Assembly (NCBI GenBank): GCA_965208325.1 | Contig: OZ242326.1 | Location: 384,001-448,000 of the forward strand | Reading direction: 5' to 3' | DNA: 64,000 nt | DNA from: Candidatus Poribacteria bacterium | Lineage (GTDB): Bacteria > Poribacteria > WGA-4E > PCPOR2b | Shown: piece after piece, positions 1 to 15,750 of the stretch | Layout: every line of letters starts with the position of its first letter | Position numbering within the stretch: the stretch's first letter is position 1 | The notes under the pieces: generated by a model | Database searches by the model: none | Told to the model about the DNA's origin: nothing | The model's input: only the letters and a program-made list of their open reading frames with translations | Translations under genes and position numbers: made by a program

Positions 1-579
1 GTTAGTGGTCGGTTGCAAGGGGTTCCCCCTCACGATGGCTATCAAGTAACCGTGCGTAATCTACGAACAGATAACACCATAACCGCGTTTGTGCAGGGTG
101 ATTACTTCGCGGCTGCAACCGCCGACTTGTCGCGCCGCAGCGTTGTTCAAGTCGGTGACGTGGTTGAGTTGCGGGTCATCGGTCCGAGCGGGAATGTCGA
201 ATCACCGACCCTCAATTACAAAGTGGCCCCTGAACACCTGGCAGACGCCGTAATGTCCGTTAATCTTGACGGCGTCGGAAAACCAAAGCTGACCCAGCTG
301 TTGCAGAACTACCCGAATCCGTTCAACCCGGAGACGTGGATTCCGTATCAACTCTCGGAAGACAGCCCTGTATCTTTATCAATTTATGATTCCACCGGTA
401 AGTTGGTTCGTACGCTTTCGCTCGGTTTTCAATCCGCGGGATATTACAATGGTCGGGACCGCGCTGCATATTGGGATGGAAAATCCGAGACTGGAGAGCG
501 GGTTGCGAGTGGGGTATACTACTATCATCTCAATGCGGGCAGCTTTACAACGGCAAAACGCATGGTCATCTTGAAGTAG
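1..579 (+). CDS. C-terminal part of a large secreted protein with an FlgD-Ig/T9SS-type C-terminal sorting domain (5' partial)
   Basis: Frame is open from base 1 (VSGRLQG...). Contains LLQNYPNPFNPETWIPYQL...YWDG...SGVYYY...KRMVILK. The upstream domain is paralogous to 12789-13583. Confidence 0.85.
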   Translation, partial: VSGRLQGVPPHDGYQVTVRNLRTDNTITAFVQGDYFAAATADLSRRSVVQVGDVVELRVIGPSGNVESPTLNYKVAPEHLADAVMSVNLDGVGKPKLTQLLQNYPNPFNPETWIPYQLSEDSPVSLSIYDSTGKLVRTLSLGFQSAGYYNGRDRAAYWDGKSETGERVASGVYYYHLNAGSFTTAKRMVILK

Positions 580-643
580 TTACCCCATTATCAGCTGCGG
601 ATTTCGAGATCGTTTACCCGCATTCAATGGGAGACCAAATCCT

Positions 644-1711
644 ATGCCTGAAATACCCAAACCGATATTGATTCAAAAGGACGAACTTCGTGAATTCGTT
701 GGAACGCTGTATCAGAAGACTGGCGTACCGCAAGATCACGCCAACCTAATGGCAGATTTACAAGTCGAAACCGATTTGCGAGGCGTGTTTTCGCACGGTA
801 CGCGTGCGGTTCCAGGGTACATCGAGAAGCTTCTTGATGGCAAAATAAACCCGACGCCGCGGTTCGAAATTGTCAAAGAGGCGCCCAGCACCGCTGTCAT
901 TGACGGAGACAATGCATTAGGGCATGTCCCCTCCGCGAAGGCGATGGAAATGGCCATCGAAAAAGCCAAATCTATGGGAATCGGCGCCGTAGGTGTCTGC
1001 AACGCTGGGCACTTCGGCGCCGCAGCGTGCTACGGAATGATGGCTGTCCGCGAAAAAATGATCGGCTTTGCCACAACAAGTACAGCGATGCGGAGCGTCG
1101 TCGCACCCGGCGGTGCAACGCCCGTAGTCGGTAACGTGGCGCTCTGCTACGCCTACCCGTCCCGAACCGAACAACCCGTGGTGCTCGACATGGCGTGCGG
1201 CATCTCGGCCTGGAATAGGATTGAAACCATGCGCATGTACAATATCCATATCCCGATGGACTGGATGTTGGACATAAATGGGAAACCGACCAACGATCCG
1301 AGCAAGGGAGAGATGCTCAAACCTGCTGCAGGTCCAAAAGGTTACGGTTTGGCGATGGCTATGACGGCCCTCGCGGGCCCTCTAATTGGCGGCATGATGG
1401 GCTGTCATAAGGACGCTGGTCCATCTGAACACTTTTTCATAGCGTTCAACGTCTCTAGTTTCACCGACTACGATGATTTCATACGTGAAATGGACAGGTC
1501 GGTTCGCACGGTGAAAACTTCAAAGACTGTTGACGGCGTGGACCGGGTTTACCTGCCGGGCGAAATTGAATGGGAAAACTACGAACCGTGGAGCGACTAC
1601 GGGATTCCGCTCCACAAAGACCACTTGAGCGCGCTAGCGGAGACCGCCGAAAAACTCGGCGTTGATGTGTTTTGGGATGTGGGGGGAATAACCGCAGCGG
1701 GAACTCGTTGA
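644..1711 (+). CDS. Ldh_2 family oxidoreductase (malate/L-lactate/ureidoglycolate/sulfolactate dehydrogenase-like)
   Basis: Motifs DLRGVFSHG, IDGDNALG, HFGAAA, VVLDMA, GPKGYGL and VYLPGE. Confidence 0.9.
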   Translation: MPEIPKPILIQKDELREFVGTLYQKTGVPQDHANLMADLQVETDLRGVFSHGTRAVPGYIEKLLDGKINPTPRFEIVKEAPSTAVIDGDNALGHVPSAKAMEMAIEKAKSMGIGAVGVCNAGHFGAAACYGMMAVREKMIGFATTSTAMRSVVAPGGATPVVGNVALCYAYPSRTEQPVVLDMACGISAWNRIETMRMYNIHIPMDWMLDINGKPTNDPSKGEMLKPAAGPKGYGLAMAMTALAGPLIGGMMGCHKDAGPSEHFFIAFNVSSFTDYDDFIREMDRSVRTVKTSKTVDGVDRVYLPGEIEWENYEPWSDYGIPLHKDHLSALAETAEKLGVDVFWDVGGITAAGTR

Positions 1712-1763
1712 CTTAGACGAATTCCTCCTTCTTGCCAAGATGAAGGTAAAGGGGATTTCGTCT

Positions 1764-2573
1764 TCAAACGCCATCCGACACCGAAGGTACGTTATCTTGA
1801 CAATAGACGGGCCGGAAGAGCGTGCGTCTTTTGAACGGCATTTCGGCAAGGTGTGCCGGGTGAGGCTCCCACTTGTGCCACTTGTTGCCAATCACGTTGT
1901 AGCAGTTGAATATGGCGACCCGGTCGGCAGTATCGTCCTCCCAACGGGCGCCTGAGTGAGTGATCGCCTCGGTAAAGAACAACACCGACCCTGCCGGGCA
2001 AGAATAATCCTCCCACAAGGGGCAATCCCGATTCTCAGTCGTTTTTGGCGGTGGAAATGCCGCTTTGTGGCTTCCGTTCAAAAACATAGTGCCGCCGCCG
2101 CGTTTTTTCACTGGGTTCAGCTCCCATACAACTCGCGTCAAACCACTGTGTACCTTGTCCGGATGCATATGATAGGTGTGTGAGTTTCCGGGAAAGTTGT
2201 GCATACCGCGTCCGCCATGAGGTCTAAAGTGGTCTTGGCCTTTGGCTCGAATCGTCAAAAACGTACCCTCCAAGCGAAAACCGTAGCACTCCTCGTTCGA
2301 ATAGCCGGACGCGACAAATTCGTTCATGAATCCCAAGACAGCTGGGTGATCTGTGAGTCTTTCGAGCGGACCGCCGATGGACGAACGGTGAGGCTCTGGA
2401 ATTGACTCGGGCTCTCTCTGCAGACGGTAACAAAACTCCCGCATCTCGACAACCTCATCGTCGTTCAGCACGCCGGGCAGAGCTATCCAGCCCCGTGTGT
2501 CGAAGATAAACTTCTGCTCTTCGGTAAACTCAATTGCCGGCGTTCCAACGGCGTTTGTCGAGGGCATAACCAT
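1764..2573 (-). CDS. PhyH-family Fe(II)/2OG oxygenase (H-G-G variant)
   Basis: N-terminal EEQKFIFDTRGW, GGTMFLNGSHK, and AGSVLFFTEAITH..R. Confidence 0.85.
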   Translation of the reverse strand: MVMPSTNAVGTPAIEFTEEQKFIFDTRGWIALPGVLNDDEVVEMREFCYRLQREPESIPEPHRSSIGGPLERLTDHPAVLGFMNEFVASGYSNEECYGFRLEGTFLTIRAKGQDHFRPHGGRGMHNFPGNSHTYHMHPDKVHSGLTRVVWELNPVKKRGGGTMFLNGSHKAAFPPPKTTENRDCPLWEDYSCPAGSVLFFTEAITHSGARWEDDTADRVAIFNCYNVIGNKWHKWEPHPAHLAEMPFKRRTLFRPVYCQDNVPSVSDGV

Positions 2574-10415: not shown

Positions 10416-12347
10416 CTACCAACCCCACTCAGTAAAATACGGGAAGATTCTGTACACATGCTGCCCGCGTATCTCGCCGAAGATTGTCCATAAACTGCCG
10501 ATAACGTGTTGGCCCAAGATTATGCCAATAAAGAACGGTACCATGCGACGATTGAGCTGAATCCCGCCGAACTTTAGAATTACCCACTTAATCAGCCACG
10601 CGGCAAAGACTGAAAACCAGATTCCGCCCATCATCCAACCGCATGCCACGGCATAACCGACGGGATGGAACGGGAATGCAAGGAATCGTTGATGCAATAG
10701 ACGAAGGACGACAGTGATACCCGCGCCCATCCCAACGTCGCGAAGCATCGGATAGTTCTGATCGCGCGGGTGTTTAATCCAACTGTCCAACATTCGGAAA
10801 CCGTTGTGGCCGATATTGTGGTAAACGTTGTCCGCGCCGAAGCGGTACATGTTGTCGAGCAGCGCCCAAAAACCGGCAAATGTGCCAACAATTGAAGCGA
10901 TAACCATTGCAATTAAGAAATGCCGGCTGCGGGCATTTAGCAGTTGCGCCATCTTGAATCCTTCAATCTGATGACCAACCGGATGGGAGCGGTATGCGCG
11001 GCACATCCAGAACAGATGGCTGAACATGGCGATATTCGTCACCCCGATACGCCGTGAGCCGAATACGTTCAATAGCATCTGATCCGGCCCCATAAACTCG
11101 GCGTCGTGTGCTGGAGGACCTATCTCGGCACGAATGCGAGCTATAGCAACGGCATAGAGAATATATACGAGTAGAAACAGAAGAACGACCCACGCGGACA
11201 TGCGGGCGTATCCGAGGAACGCCACCATAGACACGACACCAAGGACGATGCCGATGATAGCCGATCGGTAGCTCATTGCCTCGTTTGCGGCAGTTTCAGG
11301 CGTTTTGCCCCGGACAACCTCTGTGAACACTTGCTTTAGATGGTTTCGTGCAGACCACAAAGGTAAAATTGCTAAGACTATCCATGCCCCCGCAGTTTGG
11401 TAACTTCGGAATGGCCCTGGTGTTGCCCAGATGCCCACCGCATCTCAATACACTAAGTCCGCCTTCCAGAAAAGATGGAAGAACCAAGCAGAAAACGCCA
11501 GATTCAGCGGCAAGAAATAAGCCATACCGACCACGAAGGGGTAGACCGCCAACGGCAGCCAACCGACAGCATTCCACGGCTTTTCGGTGAAGAATCTGCC
11601 GAGATTGTAGATTGGCGCAAAATTCGGAGCTGCGGGCCACAAGCCGTGCAGCCCGTTGATGAGGTCAAATGCGCCGGCCAGCCCGAATCCTAGCCACAAC
11701 ATGCGGTTGGAAAGCAACCCGGTGCCGCCCTTTGCCATCTCCATCGGTAGTTGTATAACAGGATAGGCGAGTTTTTCATTTTCTGTCCACTGTTTGCGAA
11801 TGATTACGTTGATACACACAATTACGAAGAAGAGCACGATCAGAAAACTGCCCCAAGCTATAGCCGGGATTAGCCACGGCATGAAATGTTCCGAGACATA
11901 GAGAGAGGTTTCGCCGTGATGGTAACCTAGGAGCGCTGCCGGGTCGTAAACGGTTGCCCATTCGGGTACGTGTCTCCCGAAAAGCGTCATCCATTCGTTT
12001 TCTGGCGTCACAAACCAAAAACTCGTGAGGTGCTGAACCATGACGAGCAATAGGTCGTGTCCGAATATGCCGGTCGCGATGGCTGTCATCACATATATGA
12101 TGATGAGTTCTACGGGTTGAAAGGCGGCGCCGGGAGCGTATTTGTTAAGAATGGCGTTTAACACCAGCAGCAGGAATAGGGTGAACGTGACGTTGTAAAA
12201 TAGTGTGAAGAGTGTCGAAAAGACGGGCTGATAAACGGTTTCAGCGAGCGTCAGCCAATACAAATTGATAGGAATGAGGAGTGCGCCGATAATCAGTGCA
12301 CGGTATGAAATACCGGTGGGATTACGAGGGGTCGATCCAGCTTTCAA
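10416..12347 (-). pseudogene. DUF6785/DUF6784-like multi-pass membrane protein interrupted by one in-frame TGA (11445-11447)
   Basis: ORFs 11445-12347 and 10416-11438 are in the same frame (...WKADLVY*DAVGIW...). Together they align end to end with the intact paralog at 27754-29661. Confidence 0.75.
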
Positions 12348-12788: not shown

Positions 12789-13583
12789 ATGTTAATTTTC
12801 GCGCTGTTAATTGTAGTTGGAACGGGACTGCAGCGAATCAATCCCAACGCTTTGGGAGAAAGCGGATCAGGGTTACCCGACAATACACTCATCAACCTAC
12901 CGGAAGCGCGAAACGCGGCGTTTGCCGGCAAAGCTTGGGCAAACCAAGCGCAAGCCGCAGCAGCACCAAGCCTAACGCACGACTCTGACACTTGGGCGTT
13001 TGTTGTTAGCGGGCACTTACAAAGCAGTCAAAACCTGGGCGGCTATCTAGTCACGGTGCAAGATTTAACCACAGGCGATGTCATGACAGAAAGTGTGAGA
13101 GACGGCTACTTCGCCGCGGCTACAGCAAATCTCGCACGCCAAAGCGTGGTGAATGTTGGCGTCGCTTTAGAGGTCACCGTCACCGATACGACCGGCGAAA
13201 TTGCTTCGAAGCCGTTAATTTTCACGGTGACGCACAATGCGCTCCTAAACGCAGTACTTCCTTTAGTGCTTGATGGAGTAGGTGTACCGAAGCAGACGAT
13301 TTTATTGCAGAACTACCCAAACCCGTTCAACCCTGAGACATGGATACCGTATCATCTTTCCGAGGCAGGAGATGTGTCGACGACTATTTACGATACGACG
13401 GGCCAACACATTCGGATGCTATCGCTTGGCTTTCAGTCGGAGGGTTACTATCAAAGCCGTTCGCTCGCCGCCTATTGGGATGGGCGAAACGACCTCGGTG
13501 AACAAGTCTCGAGCGGGATTTACTCCTATCACTTGTCCGCCGGCGATTAAACTGCAACGCGGCGGATGGCGATTGTCAAATAG
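12789..13583 (+). pseudogene. fragment of an FlgD-Ig/T9SS-type CTD protein with premature TAA at 13548-13550
   Basis: LLQNYPNPFNPETWIPY motif. Reads ...HLSAGD*TATRRMAIVK(TAG) versus the paralog ...HLNAGSFTTAKRMVILK. The N-terminus appears truncated. Confidence 0.7.
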
Positions 13584-13607
13584 CCCATCTCGAGTTGGAA
13601 AGGCAAG

Positions 13608-14096
13608 TCAACGACCTAACTTGACTCGCGCCCACAGTGTTAGTCGTTTTAAATTTGGACGCACAGAAGACGTTTTGTCGACTGGGTGCCCCGCCTGTTC
13701 CCATGCGAAAAACCCACCCAACAGCACCGCAACATTCTCTGGATTAAAGCCAAATTTATCAATTAGCTGGCGTGCCGCACGGACACTGGTGGCTTCGGCC
13801 GGTCAGCTTCAGTAAAAAACGACAAACGGCTCATTTTTGAGCTCCTGATGCCTCGTGGAGATGTCACTAATCGGCATAGAGACGGCATTCTGAATATGCC
13901 CGTTGTCGTAGGCGCCTTTGATGCGGACATCTATAATCACGACATCATCACCTGCATCCAACCGGGCTTTGAGGTCAGCGACCGTAATTCGCTGCACATC
14001 TTCAGGAGGCGCTTGAGCGGTCGAATGTGATGCGAAAGACGTTTGAAGGAGAAGGACGGTCAACAGGAAGAAAATGCACCTATATGTTTTTTTCAT
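13608..14096 (-). CDS. secreted rhodanese-domain protein with two in-frame TGA codons (Y-U-S-U-P), putative double-selenocysteine protein, 162 aa
   Basis: Signal peptide and IIDVR...YDNGHI motif. After TAC-TGA-AGC-TGA-CCG the frame continues PAEATSVRAARQLIDKFGFNPENVAVLLGGFFAWEQAGHPV (typical rhodanese C-half) to a TGA at 13608-13610. Confidence 0.85.
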
Positions 14097-14184
14097 CGGT
14101 TTTTCTCCAAGTGTTGGGTTTTGACTTTTGTAATTTTAAGGTGTTTTTCACGCCGGTGTCAAGAGTTTTCTGACATTGGTCAAA

Positions 14185-15750
14185 TCATAGGTTTTCCATC
14201 TCACCCGTCATCAGCAGCCCAATTGCCGGCAGTTCATGTCGAAACCGTGTTGCGTCCGCCAGTCCGCCGTTGTACATCACAAAGATGCGGTCGCTGAGTG
14301 CTAGCACTTCATCTAACTCGGTGGAGATAAGCAATACGGCGCGGTGATTCCGCCGCTGCTCAAGAAGCCGCTGCTGCACATAGTCCGCCGCGCTAATGTC
14401 CAGACCGCGCGTTGGGTTGACTGCAAGCAGTAGTTCCGGTGTTTGTGAGAGTTCCCTAGCAATGAGCACCTTCTGCTGATTCCCGCCGGATAAGAATTTT
14501 ACGGGTGAGTTCCGATTAGTAGTCCGGACATCATATCCCCGGATGAGTTCATCGGCATCAGCATTGATGCGTTTTCGATCCAACAACGGGCGCCAACGTT
14601 TAAGAAATTTGGAACCGCCCATGAGGCTGGTTCGATAGTTATCAAGTTGCTGAATGTTAAGAATTAGGTTTTCCGCAACTGTGAAATCGAGAATGAGTCC
14701 GGCGTTTTGGCGATCATCGGGGATATATCCATATTTCAATCGGCGTATTTGATTCGACAATAAGTTGGTGACGAATTTCCCGTTGAATCGAATTTCACCG
14801 TTGCGCGGCATTCGCAGTCCCATAATGGTTTCTGCAAGCTCAATCTGGCCGTTGCCGTCAACGCCGGCGATTCCGACGATTTCGCCTGTATTCACCTCAA
14901 GTGAGCAACTGTTTACAGCAATCTGGCCTCGACTTCCGACGACAGTTAGGTCCCGGATTTGGAGGTGTGCGGTGCCTGAGGCGTGCGGTTCGCGTTCAAT
15001 CTGCGGCGGGTCATACCCGACCATGTGTTTCGCCAGGTCTGGCGGTGATGCGTCTGCCGCATGTGTAGTCGCGACCCGCTTGCCGCGGCGCAAGACCGTA
15101 ATTCGATCGCTAATCTCCATGACCTCTTTGAGTTTGTGGCTGATGAAGATTATCGAGTTGCCTTCTGTCTTTAGGCGCCGCAGGATGGTGAAGAGTTCGT
15201 GGGTTTCTTGGGGGGACAGGACGGATGTCGGCTCGTCAAGCACTAAAATTCGCGGCTTGATGGAATCGTCCATCGTTGGATTGACCAGTGCCTTGAGAAT
15301 TTCAACGCGTTGCTGCATCCCCACCGACAATTGCCAAATTTTGGCACGCGGTTCGATCAACAATCCATAACGGCGGGAAAGTTCAAACACTAGCGCCTCA
15401 ACCGTTCGCCGCTTTAGGCGGAATTTGCCGCGTCTGAAATTATGCGCGATGTTTTCGGCAACGCTCAACGTGGGAATTAATGCAAAGTGTTGATGAACCA
15501 TGCCTATCCCGTGTGCAATTGCCGTGTTCGGCGAATCAATTAGAACTGGCTTGCCGTCAATCCAAATCTCGCCCTCATCGGGTTGGCACAAGCCGTAAAT
15601 CGTATTCATAAGGGTCGATTTACCGGCTCCATTCTCACCGAGTACCGTGTGGACTTCACCGCGCCGTAAAGTTAGATCCACACGGTCAACGGCGAGATTG
15701 TTTCCAAATGCCTTGGTGATGCCGCGAAGCTCTAGCGCGTAAGGTGTCAA
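14185..15750 (-). CDS. ABC transporter ATP-binding protein, nucleoside/sugar (NupA/YufO-like, tandem ABC domains)
   Basis: [37 protein letters not shown] and PTRGLD. Confidence 0.92.

Follow-up and report, generated by a model that had tools for sequence, protein, structure and literature searches.

A rhodanese gene of Candidatus Poribacteria with two conserved in-frame UGA codons, very probably read as selenocysteine with the help of one SECIS-like hairpin

In this study, we describe a rhodanese gene on the minus strand of a 64,000-nucleotide (nt) stretch of DNA from a sponge symbiont of Candidatus Poribacteria (the window; contig OZ242326.1, positions 384,001 to 448,000), whose reading frame runs through two TGA codons separated by a single AGC codon. 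It is very probable that the gene encodes a genuine exported rhodanese with two selenocysteine (Sec, U) residues, both UGA codons being served by one selenocysteine insertion sequence (SECIS). This UxU form (x, any residue; CxU and CxC denote the forms with Cys) is the prevailing state among the orthologues of Candidatus Poribacteria; the incorporation of selenium is predicted from the nucleotide sequence, and a diselenide and the sharing of one SECIS are put forward conditionally. According to excerpts of an earlier report, a UxU rhodanese-related sulfurtransferase in which a second Sec had evolved is found in deltaproteobacterial symbionts of Olavius algarvensis (Zhang & Gladyshev, 2007; PMC1976440). 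The Poribacteria gene is therefore a clade-wide addition to a known kind of selenoprotein, and the rarity that an earlier note on this DNA claimed for such a motif was overstated.

The gene and the selenocysteine machinery of the genome

The open reading frame (ORF) that begins with ATG at 14096 (-) halts under translation table 11 after 95 codons, at ...FVVFY, where the minus strand continues TGA (13809-13811), AGC, TGA (13803-13805), CCG, so that the two in-frame TGAs around AGC proposed in the earlier note are borne out by the same reading of the DNA. Past this point nothing interrupts the frame before the TGA stop at 13608-13610, and its read-through product has 162 residues. The proposal that the codons past the TGAs complete a rhodanese domain (...PAEATS...) stands, and their number, put at about 65, is corrected to 64 after the second TGA. 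The principal features are as follows.

13611..14096 (-), predicted selenoprotein coding sequence, 162 codons long, codons 96 and 98 being the putative Sec codons
13608..13610 (-), true stop TGA, read from the DNA
14010..14096 (-), predicted Sec-type (export pathway) signal peptide, residues 1-29, judged from the sequence by eye
13695..13985 (-), rhodanese domain, residues 38-134, Pfam PF00581
13809..13811 (-), first UGA (UGA1), putative Sec96, at the canonical rhodanese catalytic-Cys position; aligns with the Cys of 6mxv and 3nhv
13803..13805 (-), second UGA (UGA2), putative Sec98, placed like the U in the CxU motif given for NF041203 (PMC13188914, excerpts), the Sec that defines the family
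13772..13786 (-), SECIS-like hairpin, stem GUGUC/GGCAC, loop CGUGC; from RNAalifold and pair counts

The genome, which is a single 4.7-Mb contig, carries selA, selB, selC and selD, the full set of genes whose presence had been named as a check on the double-Sec proposal. The tRNA-Sec gene (selC) scores 77.5 bits and has the anticodon TCA, SelA scores 521 bits and the SelB wing domain 66 bits; SelA and a 648-residue SelB frame adjoin the tRNA-Sec gene, and selD has an in-frame TGA of its own. SelA is present in 171 of the 176 species genomes of Candidatus Poribacteria. The genome probably has further selenoprotein genes, one of them FdhA-like (C-S-R-A-U-H) and three AhpC/Prx-like with an in-frame TGA, with sites at 1503673 (-), 4184540 (+), 4409564 (+) and 1378360-1378605 (-) of G000:C1; a hairpin lies 10-16 nt past the TGA at the first three of these sites, those that the hairpin scan covered.

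Conservation of the two UGA codons

We searched the 176 species genomes in six frames, reading through stops. Among 41 close genomes, 31 gave orthologue-level matches, 26 with two TGAs and 5 with one, and in the whole phylum 48 orthologous loci, all of which were extracted, occur in 47 of the 176 genomes. With the own genome excluded, orthologues are found in 24 of the 28 genomes of family f1, in all 11 of f3 and in 6 of the 7 of f4, in single genomes of f6, f7, f9 and f11 and in one of the two f10 genomes, and in none of families f2 (0/112), f5 (0/3) and f8 (0/8).

Codon 98 is TGA in all 48 of these orthologues, and codon 96 is TGA in 39 and TGT or TGC (Cys) in nine; neither is ever TAG or TAA. 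The codon that ends the ORF was scored as TGA in 30, TAG in nine and TAA in nine, one of the 30 TGAs (in locus L052, see below) being an internal third Sec codon and not a stop. Since the same pair recurs in 39 of the 48 loci, the argument that the double TGA is beyond chance holds. The double-TGA loci share 37-91% protein identity. Around the pair, the phylum orthologues follow the loop consensus Y-[U/C]-[S/T/G]-U-x-[A/H/R/S]-E-x-[T/S]-S, and past it E101, S104, L111, G116, G127, G128, W132 and G136 are invariant in an alignment of 22 sequences. Purifying selection beyond the TGAs, another check named at the outset, is evident: ratios of nonsynonymous to synonymous substitution (dN/dS; Nei-Gojobori, nine pairs) are 0.11-0.49 downstream of the TGAs, similar to the 0.13-0.31 found upstream.

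Both TGAs are also intact in contigs of three other sponge-metagenome studies, which differ from the window at 6-9 positions per 600 nt, the difference nearest the TGAs, at 13797, being a synonymous GCC-to-GCT change; no assembly of the own lineage has TGC or TGT at either TGA. As to Cys in homologues, codon 96 is occupied by Cys in the nine phylum orthologues and in 75 of 80 loci fetched from a wider scan (described below), and codon 98 in none of the homologues found. One database relative, P0074, reads ...YCSRP..., with Arg in place of the otherwise invariant Sec. Each of the refuting conditions set out in the earlier note was decided in favour of its proposal.

The SECIS-like hairpin

When 43 distinct aligned 78-nt segments were given to RNAalifold, exactly one helix was predicted, pairing columns 29-33 with 39-43, which correspond to 13786-13782 and 13776-13772. 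The 5-bp stem closes a 5-nt loop and starts 16 nt past UGA2 and 22 nt past UGA1. This is the stem-loop GTGTC-CGTGC-GGCAC that the earlier note had proposed; RNAalifold arrives at it by its own prediction, with compensatory changes, and a count of positions confirms the loop distances: the loop G (13780) is nt 23 when counted from TGA2 and nt 29 when counted from TGA1.

Pairing is complete in 215 of 215 cells across the 43 sequences, as against 20-66% in slid controls, and the covariation score was reached by none of 500 shuffles. At the second pair 41 sequences have U-A and two have C-G, with both sides changing synonymously (AGU to AGC, GCA to GCG), and at the fourth 28 have C-G, 13 have U-G and two have U-A; the loop follows the pattern N-G-[U/G]-[G/U]-C. 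The bacterial SECIS (bSECIS) model, as given in excerpts of PMC13188914, comprises a loop of 3-9 nt, a stem of 4-16 bp, a G in the first two loop positions, a UGA-to-loop distance of 16-37 nt and a minimum free energy of -7.5 kcal/mol or lower. The window's own hairpin fits this description in its loop (5 nt), its stem (5 bp) and the G at loop position 2, and the UGA-to-loop spacings, 21 nt for UGA2 and 27 nt for UGA1, both fall within the range of the model. In energy the window's own hairpin, at -3.7 kcal/mol, falls short of the model, and hairpins of genus g5, at -6.8 to -8.0 kcal/mol, roughly agree with it. A Prx-like Sec gene of the same genome has a similar hairpin, 15-16 nt past its UGA.

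Contigs of other organisms in four sponge metagenomes match the window only at 13771-13822, the 52 nt from the TGAs to the hairpin, with at least 85% identity over this stretch and divergent sequence on both flanks. These matches agree with a strong nucleotide-level constraint on the stretch from the TGAs to the hairpin. A search of 13500-14200 against Rfam gave no matching family, the sole match being a chance snoRNA (E 7.3).

Relation to known rhodaneses and selenoproteins

The read-through product matches Pfam Rhodanese (PF00581) at residues 38-134, spanning both TGAs, with an E-value of 4.3e-16 and 59.6 bits (cut-off 22.2). An AlphaFold2 model has a predicted local distance difference test (pLDDT) score of 86 overall and 90-97 across the rhodanese domain, and the best Foldseek matches are the single-domain rhodaneses 3nhv, 6mxv and 3gk5 (probability 1.00). 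In a profile search of solved structures U96 falls on the first residue of the active-site loop, which is Cys in 6mxv and 3nhv, so that the nucleophile position at the start of the loop is occupied by Sec96. The claim that the first TGA falls at the catalytic Cys is thereby upheld; its companion, that the pair maps onto a CxC-type loop, is not, as no CxC homologue was seen and the ancestral motif is CxU. The window protein shares its fold and the catalytic residue opening the loop past the central strand with 3nhv (BH2092), 6mxv (Francisella), GlpE (1gmx) and PspE (2jtq); these differ from it in being Cys enzymes with no second redox residue at +2, and their identity is 21-30%. PspE is periplasmic.

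Among NCBIfam models the window protein matches NF041203 best (rhodanese_LYCAU, 'rhodanese-related (seleno)protein'), with 81.8 bits, below the cut-off of 115, and the window protein is thus a relative of this curated family and not a member; other main-clade Poribacteria members score 70-78 bits. Excerpts of two sources tabulate the family as 'rhodanese-like form 3, CxU, 1 Sec' (PMC13188914) and as 'COG0607 form 2, CxU' (PMC9312934). The window protein and this family both have a single rhodanese domain, a Sec two residues past the catalytic Cys position, P-x-E-x-[ST]-S after this Sec and the same SECIS hairpin at the same distance. In the window protein, U-S-U keeps the U and replaces the C by U, in contrast to the one Sec per protein given for the family in review tables, and the Poribacteria clade adds a basic tail. 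The cut-off is passed by 5 of 16 tested relatives, namely loci of Desulfobacterota or Nitrospirota type and one Poribacteria locus, and CxU loci of Acidobacteriota, Chloroflexota and others score 59-86 bits. The CxU group is therefore much wider than NF041203, which is confined to a narrow clade within it.

The extent of this group was seen in a wide DNA scan of one-genome-per-species contigs for the pattern [TGA/TGY]-NNN-TGA, a GAA codon and the hairpin, which gave at least 120 stretches; 80 were fetched, and all 80 lie in rhodanese ORFs. The 75 CxU loci are from Acidobacteriota, Chloroflexota, Desulfobacterota, Nitrospirota, Gemmatimonadota, Rokubacteria and others, and the five UxU loci are four from Candidatus Poribacteria and one from an uncultured Chloroflexia (L132, U-T-U). 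A back-translated pattern of the protein alignment with Cys codons, which is blind to TGA, found no related loci. A profile search of 1.84 billion representatives gave mostly multi-domain rhodaneses among the best 150 matches, with 62,000 further matches, and none of the three single-domain matches opened from the best 150 was a CxC homologue. In protein databases the Poribacteria genes appear only as N-terminal stubs of 95-115 residues, one of them named 'hypothetical protein', or as full-length 'WSW' and 'WGW' proteins.

In a quick maximum-likelihood tree of 121 domains with position 96 masked, at least six switches between Cys and Sec are needed, where shuffled labels average 34; three of the switches are forced by well-supported branches, and 38 UxU genes fall within one Poribacteria clade of 47. 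It follows that the second Sec has been gained or lost repeatedly.

Two other systems bear comparison. The Olavius form is the same phenomenon in a marine invertebrate symbiont, and its motif suggests the same family and position; the organisms belong to a different phylum, the sequences are metagenome contigs, and the excerpts of that account (PMC1976440) do not describe clade-wide conservation or SECIS sharing. TsoB (NF045694), according to excerpts of PMC13188914 a rhodanese/DsbD fusion-like selenoprotein with UxxxxU and two Sec, is alike in that its rhodanese domain comes with two Sec and that it is connected with thiol:disulfide chemistry outside the cytoplasm, and it gives a weak match (32.3 bits); it differs in its Sec spacing, in being a large fusion protein and in its cut-off of 805, far above this score. 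A literature search, judged partly from listings, gave no paper linking a UxU rhodanese to Poribacteria and none with experiments on UxU.

Proposed mechanism, export and possible redox partners

It is proposed that both UGAs, 6 nt apart, would be recoded by SelB with Sec-tRNA(Sec) under the direction of the one SECIS hairpin in the coding sequence, and that the signal peptide would be cleaved and the protein be active outside the cytoplasm. The active-site loop would then read Y-Sec-Ser-Sec-P-A-E, with Sec96 in place of the canonical catalytic Cys and Sec98 as the invariant Sec of the widespread C-x-U group; an invariant Glu closes this six-residue loop. Sec96 would be the nucleophile, taking up sulfane sulfur or selenium or attacking a di- or polysulfide, and Sec98 would resolve the adduct through an intraloop diselenide (a selenenylsulfide in the CxU relatives), which an extracytoplasmic thiol:disulfide oxidoreductase would reduce again. 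Attack by Sec96, resolution by Sec98 and recycling by an oxidoreductase, taken jointly, are a proposal that we make with more doubt than confidence. The broader picture, in which one minimal SECIS directs two Sec insertions 6 nt apart, giving an intraloop diselenide in an exported rhodanese, a very low-potential, oxidation-resistant redox or chalcogen-transfer site that was fixed in most Poribacteria, with Cys and Sec switched at least three times in different phyla, is possible as a whole and is likewise offered tentatively.

As regards export, the N-terminus consists of a basic MKKTYR, a hydrophobic core CIFFLLTVLLL (about 15 residues) and cleavage-like sites SFA|S or AQA|P, with no twin-arginine (RR) motif, and a comparable basic-hydrophobic N-terminus with A-x-A sites is present in all 22 aligned orthologues. 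In the AlphaFold2 model residues 3-24 form a helix apart from the rhodanese domain. A hydrophobic stretch ahead of the domain is found in 72 of the 80 fetched loci of the wide scan, some of these stretches resembling membrane anchors rather than signal peptides.

Two gene arrangements give hints, and only hints, of a redox partnership. Locus L052 of genome G048 (309-2099 (+)) has one frame in which a signal-like N-terminus is followed by the UxU rhodanese, cohesin, HEAT repeats and an AhpC/TSA domain with W-U-G-Y-C; its three in-frame TGAs would correspond to three Sec residues, and the contig ends before a stop. The C-terminal part of this fusion has only domain-level matches in the own genome (40% identity over 68 residues), and no Rosetta-stone partner can therefore be named. 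In the seven genus-g5 loci examined, a class-I flavin adenine dinucleotide (FAD) pyridine-nucleotide-disulfide oxidoreductase (GGDCLWTGC) lies a few bases past the rhodanese stop on the same strand (for example L025 1951-3420 (+) and L027 1-1470 (-)); 19 g5 genomes carry the rhodanese orthologue, and the arrangement is absent in the window's own genus.

The UxU rhodanese is thus no metagenomic oddity: in a symbiont phylum as a whole it is a stable state kept by selection. It offers a natural test case of one bacterial SECIS serving two UGAs, at 16 and 22 nt from the stem, and of diselenide against selenenylsulfide capability, as a candidate natural diselenide. It also exposes an annotation gap, with genes filed as stubs of about 95 residues or as 'WSW' proteins, under the cut-off of the only curated model, and the CxU group is apparently far wider than that NF041203 model.

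Contrary evidence and alternative explanations

Several observations weigh against an exported double-Sec protein with one shared SECIS. The window's own 15-nt hairpin has a fold energy of -3.7 kcal/mol against the -7.5 of the bSECIS criterion, and the 76-nt region folds as a single sequence no better than shuffles (z +0.35). The evidence for the hairpin is comparative and not thermodynamic, and the covariation comes from few events (two sequences with C-G, two with U-A). Moreover, the wide DNA scan demanded the hairpin and is therefore not independent proof of it. Elsewhere in the genome the hairpin begins 11 nt from the UGA in the FdhA-like gene, 10 nt in an AhpC-like gene, roughly 12 nt in selD and 15-16 nt in a Prx-like gene, and the 22 nt between UGA1 and the stem exceed the 10-16 nt of these four candidate Sec genes, a small, hand-picked sample in which the selD distance was read by eye. 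The four (the FdhA-like gene, two AhpC/Prx-like genes and selD) were taken from a crude genome-wide scan for TGA plus hairpin, whose 147 candidates were mostly noise, or came from outside that scan. The hairpin is thus normally placed for UGA2, so that UGA1 would be decoded from 6 nt further away; this is the least certain step, and a literature search found no usable experimental figures on the tolerance of UGA-to-SECIS spacing. Recoding in E. coli is about 30-40% per site (excerpts of PMC4513850), and two consecutive recodings should be costly. No Cys homologue of Sec98 was found (TGA in 48 of 48, Arg in P0074), an unusual situation among selenoproteins. The prediction of export comes from inspection of the N-terminus by eye, the gene neighbourhood is not conserved between genera and thus helps little with function, and no RNA data set is listed among the public runs.

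Among the alternatives, it is improbable, though it fares best, that UGA1 has a signal of its own, so that two elements instead of a shared one are used. The candidate for such an element is the following.

13791..13800 (-), possible 3-bp mini-helix GGC-NGAA-GCC just past UGA2; from pair counts and outer-pair covariation

Its pairing is nearly confined to the UxU form, being complete in 35 of 39 UxU orthologues, in one of the nine CxU loci of the phylum and in none of the 75 CxU loci of other phyla among the fetched loci, counts that are confounded by Ala codons and relatedness. The outer pair covaries (GC 23, CG 7, GU 2, UG 2, AU 1, UA 1, other 7), taking all six standard pair types with a score that none of 500 shuffles reached. 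Against this, a pair of Ala codons (GCN...GCN) accounts for two of the three pairs, the variants cluster by clade, a helix of three base pairs has hardly any stability, the loop has neither the G-U nor the G-G pattern of bacterial SECIS loops, and RNAalifold did not predict the helix from the 43 sequences. The sole UxU gene outside the phylum among the fetched loci, L132, has one of the three pairs. The mini-helix begins 8 nt past UGA1, too close to exist during its decoding; given the footprint of the ribosome, a helix 8 nt past a UGA in the A site would sit inside the mRNA channel.

Marginally less probable again is the explanation that only UGA2 encodes Sec, and that UGA1 mostly terminates, giving a 95-residue stub, or is read by a near-cognate Trp or Cys tRNA, the mature protein having one Sec. 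The long distance of UGA1 from the stem (22 nt against 10-16 nt) speaks for it, as does the single-Sec CxU state, which is ancestral and far commoner (75 of the 80 fetched loci, all from other phyla). Yet codon 96 is held as TGA in 39 loci of several families, at identities down to about 39%, while the true stop drifts among TGA, TAG and TAA. Reading by Trp or Cys tRNA predicts free replacement by TGG or TGY, and in the tree entire clades have nothing but TGA. The spacings of 21 and 27 nt both lie within the model's 16-37 nt, so far as excerpts of PMC13188914 define it, and a stub with half a domain and no catalytic loop would have no use, yet purifying selection acts on the downstream half.

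The two weakest alternatives can be dismissed together with the sequencing error and code change that they involve, because of the conservation, the downstream dN/dS and the independent contigs. A pseudogene or assembly error, with two nonsense changes in a former CxC rhodanese, would fit the halting of gene callers at the first TGA and the database forms of about 95 residues, one a 'hypothetical protein', and is extremely improbable since both TGAs are shared by 39 genomes at species level and recur in metagenome contigs of independent origin, downstream dN/dS is 0.11-0.49 and homologue searches found no CxC form. Equally far-fetched is a reading of TGA as Trp or Gly (codes 4 or 25; motif WSW or GSG), as in the database relatives P0028 (...YWSWP...) and P0050 (...YWGWR..., which implies U-G-U), evidently called with a TGA=Trp table: TGA ends the upstream ABC ATPase gene (14185-14187) and the rhodanese gene itself, so the genetic code is standard, TGA stops occur all over the window, nearby ORFs of 521 and 670 residues are open under table 11, the full selABCD set is present, and position 96 alternates with Cys and not with Trp or Gly.

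Further features and neighbouring genes

Three minor features complete the gene.

13611..13664 (-), basic, amphipathic C-terminal tail V-x-P-K-x-K-R-x-T-L-W-x-R-x-K, from the alignment; Poribacteria clade only
14133..14162 (-), candidate sigma-70-like promoter TTGACA-18-TAAAAT upstream of the gene, recognised from the consensus only, with agreement at 11 of 12 positions
14105..14108 (-), Shine-Dalgarno-like GGAG, 8 nt ahead of the ATG, read from the DNA

The tail is present in nearly all Poribacteria orthologues and absent from the loci of other phyla. Its W155 is nearly invariant, and the AlphaFold2 model has a helix at 149-159 (pLDDT about 60); the tail could bind membranes as an amphipathic helix or act as a signal for sorting.

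The scan for TGA plus hairpin also gave recurrent 'YSVAU' matches, which proved to be dispersed or tandem repeat DNA (...RAPYSVA-TGA-SPST...) and not genes; sites of this repeat in G000:C1 are about 4699369-4700475, 1016336-1016677, 4040657-4041352 and 4479120-4479485.

The convergent downstream gene, 12789-13550 (+), encodes a C-terminal domain like FlgD-Ig or Por_Secre_tail; in two same-genus relatives an SBP_bac_5 solute-binding domain adjoins that tail, the two sharing a frame in L020 and the domain having an ORF of its own in L021. A DUF6785/DUF6784 membrane-protein gene, 10416-12347 (-), is interrupted by a single in-frame TGA (11445-11447). The orthologues nearest to it, those of G002, G001, G029 and G032, lack a stop at that site, and this TGA is probably the mark of a pseudogene or an error in the own genome and not a Sec codon. 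The DUF6785/DUF6784 family is hugely expanded, with 25 matches in the own genome and 10-50 in relatives.

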